A DNA stretch of 55,937 bases, counting the filler, from Catajapyx aquilonaris (lineage: Eukaryota), in the NCBI GenBank assembly GCA_000934665.2. It is 2 parts of 2 records of this genome, joined end to end, with 100 filler letters (N's around TTAATTAATTAA, not from the genome) between each part and the next. Parts side by side here need not be neighbours in the genome. Positions count along the whole stretch, not along the records: positions 1 to 27,558 come from JYFJ02005052.1; 1 more part is not named here. The stretch is one strand, 5' to 3'. Below the pieces are notes generated by a model. The model was given only the letters and a program-made list of their open reading frames with translations. It searched no databases and was not told where the DNA came from. Every line of letters begins with the position of its first letter. Within the stretch, counting starts at the first letter, position 1. A program made the translations under genes and the position numbers. Below are positions 15,084 to 27,658 of the stretch, piece by piece.

Positions 15084-18000
15084 TACATTCGAAGAGATTC
15101 TAATTCCACAGTCAAATATGTAGATGACTGAAAAAAGTTAACAGTTTATTACAGAAACCAGTTTTATGCTGCCCCACAACCATCACAAAGCAAGGCTCTA
15201 CCTACTTTCCCTAAAAGTGACGCCCGAATCCTCTTATTTTAATAAAGCAGAAACACGCCTCTATAAATGTATGACATAGCCTGCATGAATAGATTCTAGG
15301 TACCCAGCACAAAAACCTGCATGACATAAATACCGCCACAAACCCGTGGCACTTTTTGACGTTAATCACTTACCATAAATTTGGAATGCAAGTGTTTAAC
15401 CCCTCTCTGAGTTAGGCCATCCCTAAAAAAAAGGCTTGCGAGCTGGCTTGTAAAAGAGCATCGCGGAATAATCCTTCCCCAAATCCAGATAAAGTTAGTA
15501 CGAGCCTCGTGGGCACAACATCTGCGGCAACGGCCTGGAATGAGAACAAGGAATGAAACCGCCTCTCTGGTTGCATTCCACCAGGTCACTGTGTCCAGAA
15601 AACATATGCTCGATAATAATTTCATAAGTGTCGGATGGAAATCATTAAACCGATGCAGTGTGACAATTTTCGGAAACGCATAACAAGCAGCAGGGGGGTC
15701 GATGGAAGAAGGCGCAATACTTGTGACAGATCTGTCGCCAGCAAGTGGTCATATTTTCTAGAAGCCTTTCCGGGGCAATTCTCTCCAAGACCCATTTCCT
15801 TATATATCTGAGGGAGACAGCTCCCTGCATCTGGCTCCCTGCTGATCCTCTTCAAAACACCAAACCCATCCCCGCTAACTCCAAGCCAACTCCCACTAAA
15901 CCTCTTGCCAAAACACTCCAAAAACTTAGCTCTGCATAATATTCTCTGGCTTCTAATGAGCTTCCCCCCCCCCCCCACCCTGCTCCCCATCCACCCCCCC
16001 AACTTCCAGGGCCTCATTTCCCAAGCAGCCCAGGGTTTATTTCGCCTGATACAAAGGATCCCACCCCTAGCTAGCTAGCTAGATCTCTTACTCCTGGGTG
16101 CCTGCAGCTACCCTCCATGTATTGACTCACGTCGCGGATGGATGTCACCGGATCCGACAGACAGACAGGCAGCCAACCCTACCCGTTCATTCAAAAAATC
16201 ATGCCAGAAGGTGCCAACAGTGTTTATTAGCCAGTCATGTATAAATGAATGCCTATCGGGAACAGTGTTCATCAGTGCTGAGGTTTGGGCTATCGGAGTT
16301 TCAGGCCATATCCTGGCTGGTATGCAACGCACCCTTGTCGCACTAGCCTCCAGGCGCACCGAAAATCAGGGTAACCTCGTCCTTGCTGGACAACAACAAC
16401 AGTGTGAACTACTGACGAACACTGACGCTAACTGACGGACACTGACGGTCACTGCGTCCGTCAGACACTCCCCTGAAGAAAAGTCGTTTTTACTGTCTCA
16501 GTCAAACCCCTTCAGTTTGTGAACGTTGTTCTACAGCGTTCACTCCTGAAGAAGCCCTATAGTCTCGAACTATAAGGGGCTGGTAGAATAGCAGGTGAAA
16601 GAGGAGGCAGGGGAAATGGGCGAAGAAAAGAAGGTGTTGAGCGGACAGTGTGGCCCGATAATAAAAGGGTGAGAATTGCAGTTGGGATTTGCGGAGCAGA
16701 ATGTCTTCCGATGGAGAAGTCGAGTCGACAGGCAGCCAAGTTATATGGGTCCGCAACTATTCAGTCGCAACAGGAAGCCCCGCCGTCACAAGCTGGATCC
16801 AATTTCCATCGATCTTTCTCCAGGGCAATCACACCCTTCGCACTAAGTATATAGCCTTACTCTGATGTCCTGCGCCACCATCTATACACACTCCATTCTT
16901 TTCTTCACTTTTTTTTGTGTTGTTCACTGTTGCTGTCGATGCAATGCCAGCTCATTTAATTGCCGCAGGAGGCGGATATGCGATAATCAGATCAGAAGTG
17001 GCAGAGAGGCCGCACTATGCAAATGCGCCCGTGAGCCGACGAGGTTGATGAGAGAATACATCGGAAGCAATCGGTATTGCGGGTCTGCGAAACACACTGG
17101 AAACAGCGATCCGTGGGTCCGCTCAATACACATCCAGCAGCATCAGCTATAGTCAAAAAATGCAGACCAGAGTAATCCGGAAAAATTGCGAGCACACAGA
17201 GCCCGAATGGTATGAAAGGCGGTGCCTGGGCTGTCCGAACAAGTTTTCAAATGCGATCGGGACAGAGGAGCAGGCCTGATGTGATTAAGGCCGCTCCTCA
17301 TCAGCATCGGAGCAATCAATCCCGCCTGTTACCTAGTTAGGCGACCCGTGTCGGCCCCGAGGCCAAGTACCCAACCTGCCGACTAATAAACTGATTGGAA
17401 CTAATTCGGCAATTACCTGCCGCGGATTTCGTCTGCCTGTGCACCCAAAGGTGCTCGCTCCACACTCCCCACCCCAATGCTGCTCTATTCCCTATTTATA
17501 TAAAAAAAAAGATACCATTTACATTCCCTCTAATTCACAATGTAAGCCATCAGCAGTTAATTAGCCCTAATAGATGTAGTTATGCAGATGATCCAGGATA
17601 TGGGTATCAGATTGGAAAAAGAGCTGCGGGGGGGGAGGTGGCCGTATGGATTTGATTAATACCAGACCCACCCAGGCTGCTGTCGAATGGATCAGGAGTC
17701 TGATGTATACTTTTGCCATAATTTTGGACGTTAACCCGATTTCTACCACCCATAAGCGAATTAACAACACACTCGCAGTAGTTCAATGGTGGGATAAAAT
17801 GTTTCGCAAATAGGTTTTGTACATTATGATTAAAACTGGTCAGACCACATGTGAAATAAAACGAGCCACATAACTCTAAAAATGATTGCTGAACTGGGAT
17901 GGGTTGGGTGGGGAGAGGAGGAGAAAAAGTTAGGCGGATTCCCCGGACTTGGTCCCGGAGAGAGCCAAGAAACTCGAAGGGATTGGATCTGACAGTTGAA

Positions 18001-21199: not shown

Positions 21200-24100
21200 C
21201 TAAAAATTTCATGTTGTTAGATTATTGCTCATTCAGTTCAGTTCGAATTGTTTTTTTCATAACTTTTGGGATTATTTCAATGGTTAAAAACACAGTCAGA
21301 CTAGTCTGCAGAGAAAGATGCAAAGTGAACTCTCCCCATTAGAAACGACACTCCATTGTGTCACTTGCAGTATGACATGCTTGGTCATAATGAATATTTC
21401 TCAAGGGAGAGCAGTTACAAAACTCTCCAGCAATCTAGCACGACACTGTTCTAAACCAATTCCTAACAGCTTGCAAACTAGTGAAAGCCACAGGTGATGT
21501 GCCCATGCAGGGAAACAACAGAAAAATAAAAAGAAAGAAGGTGGGAATCAATGGAGCGTAGTAACAACTACCTCAAATTCTGCCTGATCCGTGCGTCCTT
21601 CAATGAACTCAGACAAGCCTTCCAATGTTCGTTTTCCCGAATATTCTACCACCTAGTCCATGTCCAAAAAGAACCATGCACAGGACAGGACACCAACCAG
21701 AAAATAAATATGAAAAGAAAAGAAGAAGCCAAACAAAAATATTAGTGCCATGAAAGAAATATTAGTGCAGTAGCAGATCTACCCTACACTAGAAGTTGAT
21801 TTCCATCAAAGCAGTCAAGGGCCTGGAAAATAACTTACACTAGGTTCACTCTTTACCTCATCAGGGGCAGCCTGACCATATTCACCACCTGATTCCAAGA
21901 ACTTGGTCATCCCTTCCAATGTCCTCTCTCCATTGTATTCAACAATCTAGAAATGCATTGTTGGGTCAAAACAATAGACAAATCAAGTGACACTCGTTGT
22001 CCTGATGCTGCAAGAATCCACCTGAAAATATTACAAACCATGCCATCCAATAAATGCTGAACAGGTGTCCAGATATCATTGATTTTCCTTAAACTCCTGC
22101 ATTAACTCCCAAGGTTCACCTCAGTGTAACACAGTAGTAGCAATATGATCTGTTCCCATTAAAATTGAAACCTACATCATAGTAGTATACTAAATTTCCA
22201 CTGGCAGTTATCTTTTTCTTTTCAGGTTCACAGTTTTATAAAAACACTATTGAAAGTAGTAAAATAGTAAGGTTTCCTGTCAATGTTAAGTTTATCAAAT
22301 CGGAACTGGCATAGATCTCATAATTACAAGTTACGTTATATGGCAGATGCTTTGAGTGTGACATTAAATCAAAATCCTTCAGAAACACTCAAAATTCCAT
22401 TAATTCATTAGATTTTGATACTACTTTTATATCGTGTGCTTAGTTCTTTTAAAAATAATTATGCACAATATTAATAAAAATATATTATCGTGAATCAATA
22501 CTCATGTTTCCTGAACGTGCCTGCTGTAGCACCACACTACCATATATCTGAAATTTGTATACAAAGTGATGACTAAACTCACTCATTCAATATGACCCTG
22601 TAACCAACACTCACCTAAAATGCAATTGTCATTATAAGATTTTCAAATTTAAAAAAGAGCTGACCTTGTTGTCATCCTTCTTATAAAGCTTGATGGTTGG
22701 GTAGCTGATTATCTTGGTGTGCTCAAGCTCATTGGCAGTGGCATCCATCTTGGCAATAATGATGGATGGATGATCCTTGTACTTCTCAGCCAGCTCTTCA
22801 TAAATTGGAACCAGCTGCTTGCAGTGTCCACACCAAGGAGCATAAAACTCAACCAAGACATCCTTGTCCTTGTCCATTGCCACAGTGTCAAAGTTGGATG
22901 ACACCAAGACCTTCACTGGGGTCTTGTCCCAGTCATCAGGCAGGTCTTGAGACAGGAGGTGTTGCTAAAAAAATTCAAAAATTAAGTCAGTTGCCTGCAA
23001 CACAATAACGCTCTTTGTAGAGCAAAACATGAGTGCGAATACATCTCAAAAGACACTTCATACGAGTATTAGCATAGACTAATCTCCCCTGTGTCACACC
23101 TTGAGCTTTCCATCAATGAAGTCCTTCACGAATGACCTGATGTTCTCCTCAGTGAAGTCACTGCTGGGGGGCTTGTACTTGGCCATCTCATCCTCAAGTC
23201 GGATCACCCTGATGCCAGGAAGCTCATCTTTCTTCATGCCAAAGAACTCCAGGATTCGCTGGTGGTCTTCTTCATCAGTGTCGATGGTGACAAACAGAAT
23301 CTGTGGAAAATTAAATGTGTGAAAATGTACCCTGCTTGATTCCGCCCTGATTGGCCATGTTTAAAGCTCCTCTAACCAGGAGGATAGAAGCAGGGAATGA
23401 GTACTCTTCCAACAGATTGTCAGAAAGTTACAGGCATTTCAAGCCTGCTTTCTAAGGGCTGTTGGATGTTGTTTAAAAGTAACAATTCTCTTCTCCACAA
23501 GAGCCCCTTCCAAAATTCTGAGCTTAAAATTTAGTGAACTATAATTTGATTATAACCATGTTGTCACCAGTCACAGTAAGAAACAACAAAATGAGTATCA
23601 CATCCCTATTAATCATACAGGCCTCTGGGCCAAGCTACAAACTTGGTATGTACGTTATTATAAAGAAATATATCTGTGTGCAAAAAAAGTTTGCTCAATT
23701 TTTTCCACAGATTTATCAAATCGTTTTTGAATTGTCAATAACCATGCATCCATGCTGCAACTATATTTGCATGACTTGATGTGAGTTAATACCTGCCCAA
23801 GTGTTGACACAACTTTCAATCGAAACCTGGTACACTATTTAAATTTATTTGTAGGCAATAATCCAAGATGATCACAATATTTTACTGCACTAGTGAGGGA
23901 AAGGTGCAAGAAGTCCAGTCACTCAAAAATGTAAGGTAGCAAGCCTGACATAGCCCCCAAGAGACATGTTCCTCCCTCACGACTCATGAGATCTGGGGAA
24001 GATTTCATCTAATTTCAGCTTCAGGCTTGCTACATTGCATTTTCAAGTGACTGTACTTGGATCAGGATGGCTGAGGGGGTAAGAGTCCTTGCCTTTGATC

Positions 24101-27024
24101 TGCTAGGACAGGAGGAGTAGGAGGAGGTAGCTGCTTGGGGTAAACAGTGTGAACAGGATGAAAGTGCATGGGTTAGCAGTGCACAGGAACTTGACCTTCA
24201 GGCATGCTACCCATTGCCCTCCAATTGAAGTTTAACTACAATGATCGAGAAATGAACTCTACCTGGTCCTTGTAGTCCTTGGCAACTTTGCGAGCAACCT
24301 CAACCTGCTGGGCGAATTCGGCACTTCCCTTCGAGACAAAGAGGAGAACGTGGCTCTTGATTTCGCCACCAAAAATCTTCTGGGCAGTCTCATGGTTGAA
24401 TTCCACCACCAGAGGCAGGGCATTTGTCTTCACATGCTTAGTCAAGGACTCCTCGGTCATTCCAGCTGCTGGCAACTCATTCCTGCCCTCATCAAACTAT
24501 TAAGAAAAATTTCATCTTGTTACAGGTGAAAATATGCTCTATTCGTGACAGGAAAGTGTAACATGTCCCACAAGAAAGCTGCTGCACAATGGCTCATTGT
24601 TTTAAATTATTTGTCAAGTGCTCCATACGCCAATTAATATTGTTCAATTGGTATATCATTGCTTGATTGGACCAAGCACTTTCAATTAAATTGAAGTCAA
24701 TTTCTCTTGAAATCCTAGCTCACCTTCTTAAGCAGGAGGACAGTGCATTGACTAATTCCATATTCTGAGAAGACAGAATCATCCGAAGTGATGGCAAATG
24801 GGATGTCATCAAGTGCACTTGCTACAGCCAAGAAGGTCTTGGCATCTGCACCTTCCTGGTCCCTGAAAAATCCAATCACAGACACTTGTGAAGCTTCTTG
24901 GAATGCCTTTGCTTCTTCCACAGTGGTGATACTCTTTGCAGGTGGGCCTGTCTTCTTCTCTACCCAAGCGACAATCTCATCACCGGTACGTCCTCCTGCA
25001 AACAGAAAACAAGGTACACTTTACTTTTATCTGTGATTCCACCTCTCAATGTCATTCACCACAGGCAGCACAATGAGCATCCCTTTTCATTTTATAAGCA
25101 GTTACGTCACCAACAGAATCTGTGGAAAATTAAAAGTGTAAAAATGTACCCTGCTTGATTCCGCCCTGATTGGCCATGTTTAAAGCTCCTCTAACCAGGA
25201 GGATAGAAGCAGGGAATGAGTACTCTTCCAACAGATTGTCAGAAAGTTACAGGCATTTCAAGCCTGCTTTCTAAGGGCTGTTGGATGTTGTTTAAAAGTA
25301 ACAATTCTCTTCTCCACAAGAGCCCCTTCCAAAATTCTAAGCTTAAAAATTAGTGATCTATATATTTGATTCTAATCATGTTGTCACCAATCACAGTCAG
25401 AAACAAGTTTGATCAAAATGAGTATGATATCCCTATTAATCATACCCTCATCATACATGAGAGGCATATAGGTGCAGTATTCCTTAAAAAAACTGTCGTG
25501 GAGTGGAAGCATTACACTCAATTATGTTGATTGTTAACATTATACCAGTGGTTTCCAACCAGGGGGTAGCAGGCAGGGTCGCGAGCCTTGGTTCAACTGT
25601 TTTTTTGTGTGTGCAATTTCTGTGTCGATTGAACCATTTTGCGGCCGTACAGAGCGTATGTTTTCTGGAAAGGGGGTAACAGTTGGTAAAAGGTTGGAAA
25701 CCACTGCAAACCTGTGTATAGCGGAATCGCACGGGACCCCAAAAATTTTCCGTTATGGATAGGTTTCCACTATAACCAGATCATGGATGCTACTGATTTC
25801 TTTCTTTCTTTTTTTTTTTTTTTGCCCACGAGAAAGATTGGAAAATGGGGAGCGCAAAATTAAGCACCTTACCTCAATATGGTGCAAAATCATAATTTTA
25901 CCTGCTCCATAGGACCATCAACCCGGACTCGAGCAATATGTTGAACCCGTGTCAACCCTTTCCTCTTCCCCGACATTTTAAAACTGGACTGAACCGTGAA
26001 CTGAAAGGCACTGCTACGTTCATGGCCGTTTTTCGAGTTTCCCAATCAAAAATAGTCCCCTTTTCCCACTCTTTATCTTCAAGGCTACAGCCCATAGCAA
26101 TTATGAGACACAGGTCCAAAAAGGGTTACTCAGAGGCCTCCTGGGAGGGCCCGGAACTCAGCTGTAGTTTATATTTTTGTGACTCGCAGGAGAAAATGCG
26201 AACCTTTTGATTTCCGTTATGAACAGAGATTTTCTCTGAAGGGAGCCAAAAATCCCTTCCGTTTCCGCGTTGGGCAGGTTCCATTATATCCGTCAAAAAA
26301 TACATTGCATACCCTACGCATATGCCCATTCCTGGAAAAAATTCTGTAATGGGATAGTTTCCGCTATATCCAGGGTCCGTTATGGGCAGGTTTCACTGTA
26401 CTATAACCGCCACTCCACTCGAGCTCCCATTTCCCCCTCAATTTCCCATTTCTATTACAATTATTCAAGCTGAACACTACTGAAACAATTCACCAAGTAC
26501 TTCACATGTAATAGAAATACATTGCACACTTCATGCTAACTCATACCAGTTACCCTTGAGCCATTCACAAAATGTGAATAGCTCTGCATGTAGATATCAT
26601 CTGAAATCCCATCCCATATCCTCCATAACTTTCCACACAAAGCCTATCACTTCCCTCTCTAACAAAGCAGCTAACGTTTCATAACTCTAATTTTAAATGT
26701 TCAAAAAATCCAGTTCCCCCCTTGCGTAGCATGTCCACAGTGCAAATACACCATGTGCTCATCAGTAGACAGTCATCAATATCAATTAATTGTACCCTGC
26801 AAGAAATGAAAGAAAACATAACATACCAGTGTATTCAATTGGCTTCCCATCCCTGTAGAACTTGAGAGTTGGGTATCCCCTGATGTTAGTCTTCTCAGCA
26901 AGTTCAGTCTCCTCTGTGGCATCCACCTTGCCCAGCTTGATATCTGAGCCCTTTTCTGTCAGCTTCTGTGCTGCCTTAACATATTCAGGGGCTAGAGCTT
27001 TGCAGTGACCACACCAGGGGGCAT
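21146..27024 (-). CDS. Pdi: Protein disulfide-isomerase (PDIA1/P4HB type, a-b-b'-a'-c), 5'-incomplete spliced gene: complement(join(21146..21199,21857..21946,22665..22964,23100..23300,24263..24496,24724..24995,26827..27024))
   Basis: Seven exons with canonical GT-AG boundaries and compatible phases join in frame (1349 nt including stop). Two APWCGHCK thioredoxin active sites, YP cis-Pro loops (GYPTLKF, SYPTIKL), acidic tail and KDEL-stop. The signal-peptide exon was not found in the window. Confidence 0.97.
21572..21652 (-). CDS. Pdi: Pdi penultimate exon, variant B (duplicated, candidate mutually exclusive exon): [27 protein letters not shown]
   Basis: gactag|GTG acceptor, GAG|gtagtt donor, 81 nt, same phase as variant A, open frame, 11 of the first 18 residues identical to variant A. 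Confidence 0.82.
21655..21778 (-). promoter_or_regulatory. AG-exclusion zone with distant branch points and polypyrimidine tract upstream of exon B
   Basis: No AG on the minus strand for 124 nt; two CACTAAT motifs (21741-21747, 21761-21767) followed by a long U/C tract. Confidence 0.65.
21857..21946 (-). CDS. Pdi: Pdi penultimate exon, variant [31 protein letters not shown]
   Basis: ttctag|ATT acceptor, GAG|gtaaag donor, 90 nt, phase 0; YNGERTL motif that closes the a' domain. Confidence 0.93.
22665..22964 (-). CDS. Pdi: Pdi exon, x-linker and a' domain: [21 protein letters not shown]...[14 protein letters not shown]...[13 protein letters not shown]
   Basis: ttttag|CAA acceptor, AAG|gtcagc donor, 300 nt; second WCGHC; overlaps ORF 22632..22916. 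Confidence 0.97.
23100..23300 (-). CDS. Pdi: Pdi exon, b' domain: [44 protein letters not shown]...FIDGKLK
   Basis: ttttccacag|ATT acceptor, AAG|gtgtga donor, 201 nt; RILEFFG motif. Confidence 0.95.
23293..23618. repeat. Direct duplication, copy 1 (snoRNA, splice acceptor and first 8 exon nt)
   Basis: Aligns end to end with 25112-25445; core 23322-23519 is identical to 25141-25338. Confidence 0.97.
23323..23466 (-). ncRNA. Intronic box H/ACA snoRNA, copy 1
   Basis: Sense to Pdi. Hairpin 1 (TCCAACAG/CTGTTGGA base, internal pocket, AGAAAG/CTTTCT and CAGGC/GCCTG upper stems), H box AGAGTA (23402-23407), hairpin 2 (CCCTGCTT/AAGCAGGG base), ACA at 23326-23328 followed by TTT; 144 nt. Confidence 0.85.
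23916..24053. mobile_element. Tc1/mariner-type MITE in a Pdi intron
   Basis: 33-bp imperfect terminal inverted repeats (CAGTCACT...AGCCTGA / TCAGGCT...AGTGACTG), 4 mismatches; TA on the right, TC on the left. Confidence 0.6.
24263..24496 (-). CDS. Pdi: Pdi exon, b/b' junction: [12 protein letters not shown]...[23 protein letters not shown]...KDYKDQ
   Basis: aatag|TTT acceptor, CAG|gtagag donor, 234 nt; typical PDIA1 [16 protein letters not shown] motif. Confidence 0.95.
24724..24995 (-). CDS. Pdi: Pdi exon, end of a domain and b domain: [19 protein letters not shown]...CTVLLLKK
   Basis: tttgcag|GA acceptor, AAG|gtgagc donor, 272 nt (phase 1 to 0); overlaps ORF 24715..24921. Confidence 0.95.
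25112..25445. repeat. Direct duplication, copy 2
   Basis: Aligns with 23293-23618. Confidence 0.97.
25142..25285 (-). ncRNA. Intronic box H/ACA snoRNA, copy 2 (identical to copy 1)
   Basis: Same sequence offset by 1819 nt, in a different Pdi intron; H box 25221-25226, ACA 25145-25147. Confidence 0.85.
25546..25706. mobile_element. hAT-like MITE
   Basis: Perfect 15-bp TIR CAGTGGTTTCCAACC / GGTTGGAAACCACTG; no intact 8-bp target-site duplication. Confidence 0.75.
25707..26398. mobile_element. pogo/Tigger-like non-autonomous DNA element
   Basis: Right end ...CCGTTATGGGCAGGTTTCACTG|TA; damaged left end AAACCTGTGTATAGCGGAA abutting the hAT-like MITE; repeated subterminal TTCCGTTAT/TTCCGCTAT motifs. 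Confidence 0.6.
26827..27024 (-). CDS. Pdi: Pdi first visible exon, a domain: (Y)[65 protein letters not shown](G)
   Basis: ctaatgcag|AT acceptor, ACTG|gtatgt donor, phase 1 at both ends, WCGHC motif. Not in the ORF track. Confidence 0.96.
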
Positions 27025-27558
27025 CTGCATTAGAGCAAAAAAAGACATTCGTAAGTTGCTATTTCTGTGAGGTAGCGCAACTTCAAATTTATAAAACAGT
27101 CCGGCCCGGAAAATTCACTACCATTTAAAAAAATTGTCTGCAAACATAACCACCATAAATTTGAACTTGTTTTCTCTCTCTATAATGAATTCAATAGTAT
27201 CGAGACTTCTGCACAAGGGCCATGGCCCAGCAGGGAAATAAAACTTATAAACTTATTATTATTATTGAGACTTGATTGAATATCACAAAAAACTCAAACC
27301 AAAATTGAATCGTCTGACACGTGTGGATATTTTAAACACCTAGCACAAAACTCTTTTTTACTTTTGTCATGAAAAATTACTTGAATGCTACTCTGTGATA
27401 CTAAAATAATATAAGTTACTGCCAGATGTTTGGGTATGTGCAGGAATTAAACTTCTACACAAGCACTGCACCAACGGTACGCCTTTCCAGTGCTCAAAAA
27501 TTCGAAAGACTGGCAATGAAATACCTACATTTTTTCAGCTTTCCTAACACTCCCCGGA

Positions 27559-27658
27559 NNNNNNNNNNNNNNNNNNNNNNNNNNNNNNNNNNNNNNNNNN
27601 NNTTAATTAATTAANNNNNNNNNNNNNNNNNNNNNNNNNNNNNNNNNNNNNNNNNNNN
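27559..27658. other. Artificial contig join: N44-TTAATTAATTAA-N44
   Basis: Exactly 100 bp, symmetric, with a central 12-mer that has stop codons in all six frames. Confidence 0.92.

Follow-up and report, generated by a model that had tools for sequence, protein, structure and literature searches.

Two identical copies of a probable box H/ACA RNA gene in separate introns of the Catajapyx aquilonaris Pdi gene

Two introns of the Pdi gene of Catajapyx aquilonaris each carry one copy of a 144-nt element (23323–23466 and 25142–25285), and the two copies are letter-for-letter identical, lie on the minus strand and run in the sense direction of Pdi. Their predicted architecture, their boxes and their position in the host make it probable that they represent a pair of paralogous genes, each encoding a box H/ACA snoRNA, or possibly a small Cajal-body RNA, within an intron. 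The candidate probably adds a further case to a familiar gene class. If real, it would add one unlisted two-copy H/ACA guide RNA to the snoRNAs catalogued for an arthropod with poor annotation, while leaving knowledge of snoRNAs and of Pdi unchanged. Positions refer to the window, i.e., the whole stretch of DNA analysed (55,937 nt). An H/ACA snoRNA reading was already put forward in a preliminary description of this DNA, and the parts of it that stand are the architecture, the boxes, the sense intronic position, the presence of two copies and the local duplication that produced them; however, the candidate matches no Rfam family, and no significant rRNA target was found for it in foreign rDNA.

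The minus strand of this region carries Pdi, as judged by Thioredoxin and Thioredoxin_6 domains (Pfam) on all five of the five exon translations and by top solved-structure matches to protein disulfide-isomerase (E 1e-59). The contigs of RNA run X5 are spliced and extend over Pdi exons only. One spliced contig sets the introns 23301–24262 and 24497–24723, and the next intron, 24996–26826, was placed from the loose end of an X5 contig. With these three introns defined, the copies fall one each into two different introns, as the preliminary description had proposed; these introns are not adjacent. The identity of the 144-nt twins and their orientation relative to Pdi were likewise found as claimed there. 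The 3′ splice site of the host intron follows 22 nt after the predicted 3′ end in the case of copy A and 146 nt after the element in the case of copy B (Table 1). The first exon and the promoter of Pdi were not located in the window, which has a gap at about 27559–27657.

Table 1. Positions of the candidate RNA, its parts, the host introns and the duplicated segments in the window
Feature	Position	Strand	Details
Copy A, candidate H/ACA RNA, 144 nt	23323..23466	-	in Pdi intron 23301-24262
Copy A 5′ hairpin (hairpin 1)	23408..23466	-	8-bp lower stem, internal loop, 13-bp upper stem, 7-nt loop; -25.7 kcal/mol (predicted)
Copy A hairpin 1, candidate pocket strands	23454-23458 (CCCUU) + 23416-23421 (GACAAU)	-	
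Copy A H box AGAGUA (ANANNA)	23402..23407	-	directly 3′ of hairpin 1 (one base past its lower stem), single-stranded hinge
Copy A 3′ hairpin (hairpin 2)	23330..23395	-	8-bp lower stem; -27.6 kcal/mol (predicted)
Copy A hairpin 2, candidate pocket strands	23382-23387 (CUAUCC) + 23338-23344 (CGGAAUC)	-	
Copy A ACA box	23326..23328	-	one base past 3′ hairpin, then UUU
Copy B, candidate H/ACA RNA	25142..25285	-	same sequence as copy A; in Pdi intron 24996-26826
Copy B boxes	H box 25221-25226; ACA 25145-25147	-	
Pdi intron with copy A	23301..24262	-	GT..AG, 962 nt; spliced X5 contig, dinucleotides checked
Pdi intron with copy B	24996..26826	-	GT..AG, 1831 nt; X5 contig loose end located in window
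Whole duplicated unit, copy A (source)	23287..23620	-	spans intron 3′ splice site and first ~14 exon bases
Whole duplicated unit, copy B (derived)	25106..25445	-	copied, apparently unused acceptor CCACAG|AUUCUG near 25120 and decayed exon piece inside intron
100% identical stretch, 198 nt	23322..23519 = 25141-25338	-	RNA plus 54 nt upstream and 1 nt downstream

The whole 144-nt RNA is predicted to fold at −54.3 kcal/mol, versus a mean of −35.8 kcal/mol for its shuffled counterparts (z = −4.51), and an equally stable fold was obtained in none of 200 shuffles. This fold consists of two single hairpins in a hairpin–hinge–hairpin–tail arrangement, with the energies given in Table 1. The Pdi-sense strand is slightly better folded than its complement (−54.1 versus −51.3 kcal/mol), and it is the sense strand that holds the boxes. 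Both of the boxes named in the preliminary description are present, namely an H box AGAGUA (AGAGTA in DNA letters) reading from 23407 to 23402 and an ACA reading from 23328 to 23326 with three U residues behind it. The identity between the copies stops 4 nt after the ACA, and the mature 3′ end used throughout is a predicted one.

In H/ACA RNAs, the canonical distance from the pocket to the box is 14–16 nt. In the minimum-energy fold of the candidate, the 3′ strand of the pocket begins 12 nt before the box in both hairpins, and the pockets are small, with 3 + 4 nt in hairpin 1 and 3 + 3 nt in hairpin 2. Opening the pairs U12–A47 and U13·G46 in hairpin 1 yields a 5 + 6-nt pocket at 14 nt from the box, and opening UCC/GGA in hairpin 2 yields a 6 + 7-nt pocket at 14–16 nt. 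The earlier statement that the first pocket starts 14 nt before the H box therefore holds only with these weak pairs open, whereas the minimum-energy fold gives 12 nt.

A custom scanner for H/ACA boxes and hairpins was applied to both strands of the window, with 16 dinucleotide shuffles of the window serving as the control. The real window returned four matches, namely the two Pdi copies and two weaker ones, whereas the 16 shuffled windows returned two matches in total, neither of them at energies of −25/−25 or better. The two weaker matches lie outside any evident gene and reach z values of only −2.0 and −2.4. The false-positive rate of this scanner in real DNA (112 kb) is not negligible.

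The preliminary description had named Rfam as a check on class membership, and this check brought no support, since none of the 4227 families reached its gathering score in the window. When the threshold was relaxed to E values up to 10, for a 2.3-kb segment and for 171 nt, the sole H/ACA match was SNORA74, which aligned with its 5′ hairpin only; its 9.6 bits fall far short of the gathering score of this family, 71 (E = 1.9). The 5′ hairpin of SNORA74/U19 (RF00090) aligns to 23408–23466 and has a similar stem layout; however, its pocket strands are unlike those of the candidate, and with one hairpin alone involved the resemblance is of chance level and does not indicate membership. The relaxed search also gave a U4 match (15.6 bits) and a snoZ105 match in the flank of copy B (20.3 bits, without a D box), both of which were rejected as chance-level.

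The closest known counterparts are the intron-encoded H/ACA snoRNAs of animals, such as Drosophila snoRNA:Psi18S and snoRNA:Psi28S, with which the candidate shares a hairpin–H–hairpin–ACA layout of about 140 nt, the occurrence of one RNA per intron in the sense of the host, and paralogues that arise by duplication inside the host gene. Drosophila H/ACA isoforms labelled a, b and c are reportedly found in the introns of one host gene (work attributed to Huang et al. in 2005). In contrast to these RNAs, the candidate matches none of the described families by sequence or covariance model, and it ends just 22 nt from the acceptor. Cis-duplication of snoRNAs is discussed in PMC2817437, and PMC13228274 gives the intronic share of expressed Drosophila snoRNAs as 95%.

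Substrates of the putative guide were sought in rDNA and in the host transcript. A total of 109 eukaryotic rDNA loci were collected from metagenome contigs via an ITS1 primer, and eight full units were mapped with Rfam. Against three full foreign rDNA units, shuffled guides reached the best score of the real guides in 154–196 of 200 trials. The best candidate overall, which belongs to hairpin 2, is the 18S site GAUUCNN-U-GGGUGG. Its 12 unbroken pairs require an rDNA variant that has UG at NN, and even on such a variant this pairing is equalled by 25 of 400 shuffled guides. The invertebrate-like rDNA variants obtained have GG at NN, which places a G·G mismatch next to the target, and a contig scan for the metazoan-type 18S site recovered two 18S contigs, each of them a contaminant that carries GG at this variable pair. 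This 18S site is not mentioned in a Xenopus snoRNA paper, and the literature search gave nothing relevant on Psi18S-1347 or on a snoRNA in a PDI gene. Two 28S sites in the foreign rDNA, UUGAUUCU-U-CGAUG for hairpin 2 (6 + 4 pairs) and GGAUUGGC-U-CUAAGGG for hairpin 1 (11 pairs, one mismatch), do not rise above shuffled guides. A loose search that tolerated one mismatch yielded many hits, among them one of 13 pairs with the 28S antisense strand, which indicates that its background is high. For the host Pdi transcript as the target, 71 and 58 of 200 shuffles equal the real best of the two pockets.

That no rRNA target emerged from the foreign rDNA would be compatible with a guide for an snRNA, as in small Cajal-body RNAs. 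The CAB box, which is UGAG in the terminal loops, is the mark of H/ACA scaRNAs, the pseudouridine guides of snRNAs. The candidate shares the two-hairpin frame of these RNAs, and its hairpin 2 loop holds AGAG, which agrees with the CAB box at three of four positions; however, the hairpin 1 loop, UUGAAAU, is without a CAB box.

The two 144-nt copies are embedded in a longer direct repeat, 23287–23620 versus 25106–25445, which is 93.8% identical over 340 columns. Copy A, beside the splice site in use, is the original, and an approximately 340-bp DNA segment over the intron–exon border was copied to the second intron upstream of it, giving copy B. The splice site and the decayed exon piece that copy B carries show that it arose by local segmental duplication. 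If the RNA is real, this is a clean and datable case of snoRNA gene multiplication, in which splice-site and exon sequence were duplicated together with the RNA. Within the repeat, the 198-nt core has no differences, whereas its flanks have 11 substitutions in 124 aligned positions (8.9%), a pattern with P of about 1e-8 at a uniform rate. In DNA runs X1 and X2, unitigs of twice the usual depth have the limits of this core, and their depth is what the two loci give when added together (42.1 versus 12–22.7 for the flanks in X1; 56.4 versus 19.6–33.1 in X2). Copy number was inferred from unitig depth alone, which is a rough measure, and a sensitive blastn search found no further copy in the window. 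The preliminary description held that many dispersed genomic copies would point to a transposon; they were not seen in the window, and the depth fits exactly two, so that the element is not a dispersed repeat. A DNA joint from 23326 to 25075, present in X1 and X2, was discounted, as its shorter side has only 21 letters and the joint does not keep the repeat register.

On the 3′ side, the perfect identity stops 1 nt past the predicted mature end of the RNA, whereas on the 5′ side it overshoots the RNA by 54 nt (P = 0.007 by chance). Such an overshoot is unlike pure selection on a 144-nt snoRNA and is as predicted for a gene-conversion tract. Gene conversion thus accounts for the perfect 198-nt identity between diverged flanks as well as selection does, and the identity evidence is ambiguous because it reaches 54 nt 5′ of the RNA. 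Since the two copies are identical, they also provide no covariation.

The same overshoot gives some weight to an explanation that we regard as unlikely though worth serious attention, namely that the repeat is a duplicated piece of intron without function, in which the H/ACA shape is fortuitous or the relic of a dead snoRNA and the 198-nt identity is a recent gene-conversion tract. It would agree with the small pockets of the minimum-energy fold, with the two likely false positives that the scanner gives in 112 kb of real sequence, and with the outcome that neither a target (in foreign rDNA or the host transcript) nor an Rfam family was found. However, two stable hairpins together with both boxes are rare, as none of the 16 shuffled windows had them at such energies and the fold has a z of −4.5; the element is intronic and in the sense of the host, and its identity ends almost at the predicted 3′ end. 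A dead relic, moreover, would be unlikely to retain boxes and stems in both copies, unless the conversion was very recent.

Under the favoured snoRNA reading, general knowledge of the class suggests that the candidate RNA would be transcribed within the Pdi pre-mRNA. By analogy, dyskerin (Nop60B/Cbf5), Nop10, Nhp2 and Gar1 would assemble on the nascent intron by binding the two hairpins and both boxes, and after splicing and debranching, exonucleases would trim the intron to a particle of about 144 nt ending 3 nt past the ACA. Each internal loop would then pair with a substrate RNA and position one uridine for conversion to pseudouridine. Accumulation of the RNA, dyskerin binding and modification of a substrate are what we infer for the candidate from its likeness to the class. 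The perfect identity of the 198-nt core amid diverged flanks is most likely the result of gene conversion between the two loci, to which selection may have added.

The unusually short distance from the RNA to the acceptor is the one feature of wider interest, as a possible effect on host splicing. Because only 22 nt separate the predicted 3′ end from the acceptor, there is no room for the branch point except at or beside the RNA end, and a candidate branch point, UUCAC, places its A at −20. In addition, a predicted 15-bp helix pairs 23506–23520 with 23295–23310, covering the pyrimidine tract, the AG and the first six exon bases, with pair probabilities of 0.85–0.99 in copy A and 0.56–0.88 in copy B. 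These features would suit a compact structure in the Pdi pre-mRNA that acts in cis near the 3′ splice site and, with or without snoRNP proteins, governs branch-point or acceptor use and Pdi output, an explanation that we consider improbable. The helix is ordinary, since 1696 of 15,658 random segment pairs of the same spacing in the window (10.8%) pair as well or better, the single X5 RNA contig is spliced normally at 23300/24263, and pairing of the pockets with the host transcript is no better than that of shuffled guides (71 and 58 of 200, as above). There is precedent for control of host splicing by a snoRNA: PMC10324135 describes SNORD2 in EIF4A2, where a snoRNA–intron duplex conceals the branch point, and, as with the Pdi candidate, the surroundings of the intronic RNA overlap the splicing signals of the host intron. 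However, SNORD2 belongs to the box C/D class, and both its duplex and its effect on splicing have been demonstrated, whereas the Pdi flanking helix is matched by the stated share of random controls and the X5 contig shows no alternative splicing. A combined version, in which the element would encode a snoRNA and at the same time act as a splicing gate for its host Pdi, is slightly more improbable still; here snoRNP assembly or the flanking helix would set the efficiency of exon joining and silence the copied acceptor in copy B, and the output of an ER foldase would be tied to snoRNP assembly capacity. The idea that a small mobile element, either a MITE or a retroposon of snoRNA origin, inserted itself twice in Pdi is close to refuted and very improbable indeed, as the partly complementary unit ends and the repeat-rich window (e.g., 25541–25598 at a depth of 850–1535) are outweighed by a unitig depth of exactly two genomic copies, the lack of another copy in the window, the splice site and decayed neighbouring exon in copy B that mark a local segmental duplication, and the lack of a poly(A) tail.

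No support was found for the proposal in the preliminary description that Pdi, an ER foldase gene, may as a host link the supply of the guide to the unfolded protein response. With a vertebrate-defined ERSE motif, two one-mismatch matches were found in the window versus 3.45 expected, both at 33.8–35.3 kb and neither near Pdi. Common hosts of snoRNAs include highly expressed housekeeping genes outside translation. In Drosophila S2 cells, ribosomal-protein genes host only 30% (73 of 239) of the expressed snoRNAs, according to PMC13228274, which suggests that non-ribosomal hosts are the norm in insects.

The coordinates in the preliminary description of a candidate box H/ACA snoRNA proved exact: copy A and copy B are identical over 144 nt, and the H box AGAGUA, then an ACA with UUU after it, are seen on the minus strand of both. 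On this strand, the RNA folds into two single hairpins (−25.7 and −27.6 kcal/mol), with AGAGUA one base past hairpin 1 and ACA one base past hairpin 2. Folded with some flank, it reaches −54.3 kcal/mol vs. −35.8 ± 4.1 kcal/mol for shuffles (z = −4.51), and 0 of 200 shuffles were as good. A custom scanner, which requires an ACA, an ANANNA box 48–85 nt upstream and two single hairpins abutting the boxes, returned four places on the two strands of the real window, i.e., the two copies and two weaker matches; when the whole window was dinucleotide-shuffled 16 times, two places were returned in total, none of them at −25/−25 kcal/mol or better. The two extra matches, with fold z of −2.0 and −2.4, are probably false positives, a reminder that more H/ACA-like shapes arise in real DNA than in shuffles. 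We lean toward reading the element as a two-copy, intron-encoded candidate box H/ACA guide RNA whose copies owe their identity at least in part to gene conversion. As such, it would belong to an already known kind of gene and be of low general interest.

Features of the candidate snoRNA copies and their surroundings, in window positions
Feature	Position	Strand	Remarks
Copy A	23323-23466	minus	144 nt
Copy B	25142-25285	minus	144 nt
Identical core	23322-23519 and 25141-25338		198 nt
Direct repeat	23287-23620 and 25106-25445		93.8% identical over 340 columns
Core unitig, DNA run X1	25141-25342		depth 42.1; flanks 22.7 and 18.2 beside copy A, 18.2 and 12 beside copy B
Core unitig, DNA run X2	23322-23519		depth 56.4; flanks 33.1 and 30.8 beside copy A, 30.8 and 19.6 beside copy B
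Pdi intron	23301-24262	minus	GT..AG, RNA (X5) contig; hosts copy A
Pdi intron	24497-24723	minus	GT..AG, RNA (X5) contig; short middle intron without a copy
Pdi intron	24996-26826	minus	GT..AG, RNA (X5) contig and located continuation; hosts copy B
Extra scanner match	395-560	minus	outside any evident gene; weak fold z
Extra scanner match	15434-15607	plus	outside any evident gene; weak fold z

The complementary strand of the element folds nearly as well (−51.3 kcal/mol), and thus the strand call rests on the boxes, three G·U pairs and the host orientation. The 3′ strand of the first pocket had been proposed to start 14 nt before its box. In the minimum-energy fold, however, the internal loops (3+4 and 3+3 nt) start 12 nt before the boxes, and the 14-nt start holds once weak pairs open: the canonical 14–16 nt spacing, with usable guides, is obtained only when each upper stem opens at its base by two to three weak pairs. 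Such opening is common among real guides and is assumed for this element. The candidate guides would then be CCCUU/GACAAU in hairpin 1 and CUAUCC/CGGAAUC in hairpin 2.

Judged by its coding sequence, the minus-strand gene around both copies is a classical protein disulfide isomerase (Pdi). All five exon translations tested matched Pfam Thioredoxin or Thioredoxin_6, the a′ domain exon matched solved PDI structures (E 1e-59), and the last exon ends in RKDEL. One contig of the RNA run X5 links 23300 to 24263 and 24496 to 24724, and continues past 24996 into sequence placed at 26828. This spliced contig places one copy per Pdi intron, as had been claimed, in the first and third of three introns and sense to Pdi. 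Neither the promoter nor the first Pdi exon, which would carry the signal peptide, was located in the window; upstream of the first exon identified (26827–27031) lies a run of N, read as an assembly gap, at about 27559–27657.

Many dispersed copies, which in the preliminary description would have pointed to a transposon, were not found. Copy number was judged from unitig depth in the DNA runs X1 and X2, contig depth being a rough measure. The shared core was assembled as one collapsed unitig, with limits corresponding to those of the 198-nt identical run, and in both runs its depth equals the sum of two loci and no more. A blastn search (word size 7) within the window gave no diverged third copy, and an index of other DNA windows gave no look-alike of the element. 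This is good evidence, short of proof, that the element is not a dispersed repeat.

The second copy arose when about 340 bp of DNA was duplicated locally, in line with the proposed spread by cis-duplication to another intron of the host: the direct repeat includes a splice site. It extends through the acceptor of the copy A intron into the exon; ATTCTGTTTGTCAC (copy A) aligns with ATTCTGTTGGTGAC (copy B), and similarity is weaker beyond. In copy A, the exon bases of the repeat encode the conserved ILFV of PDI, whereas in copy B their counterpart lies inside the intron, 106 nt upstream of the true acceptor, which identifies copy A as the source from which copy B is derived. The copied acceptor in copy B (25106–25125) reads UUUUCCACAG then AUUCUG, with a decayed exon piece, and this extra CCACAG acceptor is unused in the one X5 RNA contig. 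Retroposition is rejected as the origin of copy B, which has no A tail and has flanks copied on both sides. Cis-duplication inside a host gene is an established way in which snoRNAs evolve (PMC2817437).

The identity between the copies is unevenly distributed. Alignment of the units outside the core shows two indels and, over 124 aligned positions, 11 substitutions (8.9%); the 198-nt core has no difference at all, for which P is about 1e-8 if the rate were uniform. On the 3′ side, identity stops one base past the predicted mature end; on the 5′ side, it reaches 54 nt past hairpin 1 (P 0.007 by chance), and this extension folds weakly (−7.7 kcal/mol). Paralogues among real snoRNAs usually allow some variation in their loops. 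This pattern is not predicted by pure selection on a 144-nt snoRNA, and gene conversion over a tract of about 200 nt accounts for it at least as well as selection. By our own estimate, a random tract of ~200 nt within the repeat covers the entire RNA in roughly four of ten cases; thus, the identity is not strong evidence of function. Directly upstream of the core, on the minus strand at 23519–23545 (25338–25365 in copy B), lies an acceptor-like string, CACUAAA, a U-run and GCUCAG in copy A and CACUAAU, a U-run and GCUUAG in copy B, which, from its sequence, might be an older or alternative acceptor.

An Rfam search of the whole window, a check suggested at the outset, gave no match at gathering score. 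When the filters were relaxed on a stretch of 171 nt, the sole H/ACA family was SNORA74, through its 5′ hairpin alone, at 9.6 bits vs. a gathering score of 71. Targets were sought in foreign rDNA, i.e., 109 eukaryotic loci from metagenome contigs, among which eight complete units were delimited with Rfam. In a shuffled-guide test requiring unbroken pairing on three of the eight units, the real best was reached by 154, 196 and 181 of 200 shuffled guides for hairpin 1, and by 158, 192 and 179 of 200 for hairpin 2. The most promising candidate is the uridine of 18S GAUUCNN-U-GGGUGG, with which hairpin 2 forms 7+5 unbroken pairs where NN = UG (units L010 and L037); there, 25/400 and 49/400 shuffled guides score equally well. 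The fetched loci contain 40 copies of this site, with TA at NN in 22, GG in five, AG in five and CG in none; NN is also GG in two invertebrate-like 18S contigs from a scan of genome contigs, which places a G·G mismatch one pair from the target uridine. Other candidates in foreign rDNA are 28S UUGAUUCU-U-CGAUG for hairpin 2 (6+4 pairs) and 28S GGAUUGGC-U-CUAAGGG for hairpin 1 (11 pairs, one mismatch); the latter search also gave a 13-pair match to the 28S antisense strand, showing that the background is high. Pairing with the Pdi pre-mRNA was no better than with shuffles. The candidate RNA may instead have an snRNA target, as a scaRNA; relative to the CAB motif of scaRNAs, the loop of hairpin 2 has AGAG, agreeing at three of four positions, and loop 1 has none. 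In the flank of copy B, 25413–25459 (minus strand) contains AUGAUGA and matches the box C/D family snoZ105 (20.3 bits, E 3.1); it is rejected as a box C/D snoRNA, having UUGA in the D-box place, and copy A lacks a C-box-like string.

Coupling of the RNA to the unfolded protein response through its Pdi host, also raised earlier, found no support: the window holds two one-mismatch matches to the vertebrate ERSE consensus vs. 3.45 expected, both far from Pdi. Every intronic snoRNA depends on transcription of its host, usually an abundant housekeeping gene. Of the snoRNAs expressed in Drosophila S2 cells, 95% lie in introns and only 30% (73/239) are hosted by ribosomal-protein genes (PMC13228274).

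Only 22 nt separate the predicted 3′ end of copy A from the acceptor, which forces the branch point to the edge of the RNA; candidates read from the sequence are UUCAC with A at −20 and UUAAU with A at −11. A partition-function fold of the whole unit predicts a 15-bp helix between 23506–23520 and 23295–23310 (25325–25339 and 25114–25129 in copy B), which would close the whole snoRNA unit and cover the pyrimidine tract, the AG and the first six exon bases. Its 23506–23520 arm lies at the 5′ start of the identical core. Pair probabilities are 0.85–0.99 in copy A and 0.56–0.88 in copy B, but of 15658 equally spaced pairs of 30-nt segments from the window, 1696 (10.8%) pair at least as well. The helix over the copy A acceptor recalls SNORD2-EIF4A2, in which a snoRNA–intron duplex hides a branch point (PMC10324135), whereas the helix here is predicted only. 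It is improbable that the helix or the nearby candidate snoRNA would act on Pdi splicing.

Two further features lie in the host introns. In the copy B intron, 25541–25598 is a high-copy repeat of the genome, with unitig depth of 850–1535 in X1 and X2 vs. about 12–33 around it, and many contigs with differing loose ends continue out of it. In the copy A intron, 23911–24058 is an inverted repeat (38-nt arms, 87% complementary, 72 nt between) whose matches to families of plant miRNAs, at E 0.33 and 5.5, score far under the gathering level and are no better than chance; its depth is slightly raised, 23943–24008 is skipped by DNA contigs, and it may be a small foldback element.
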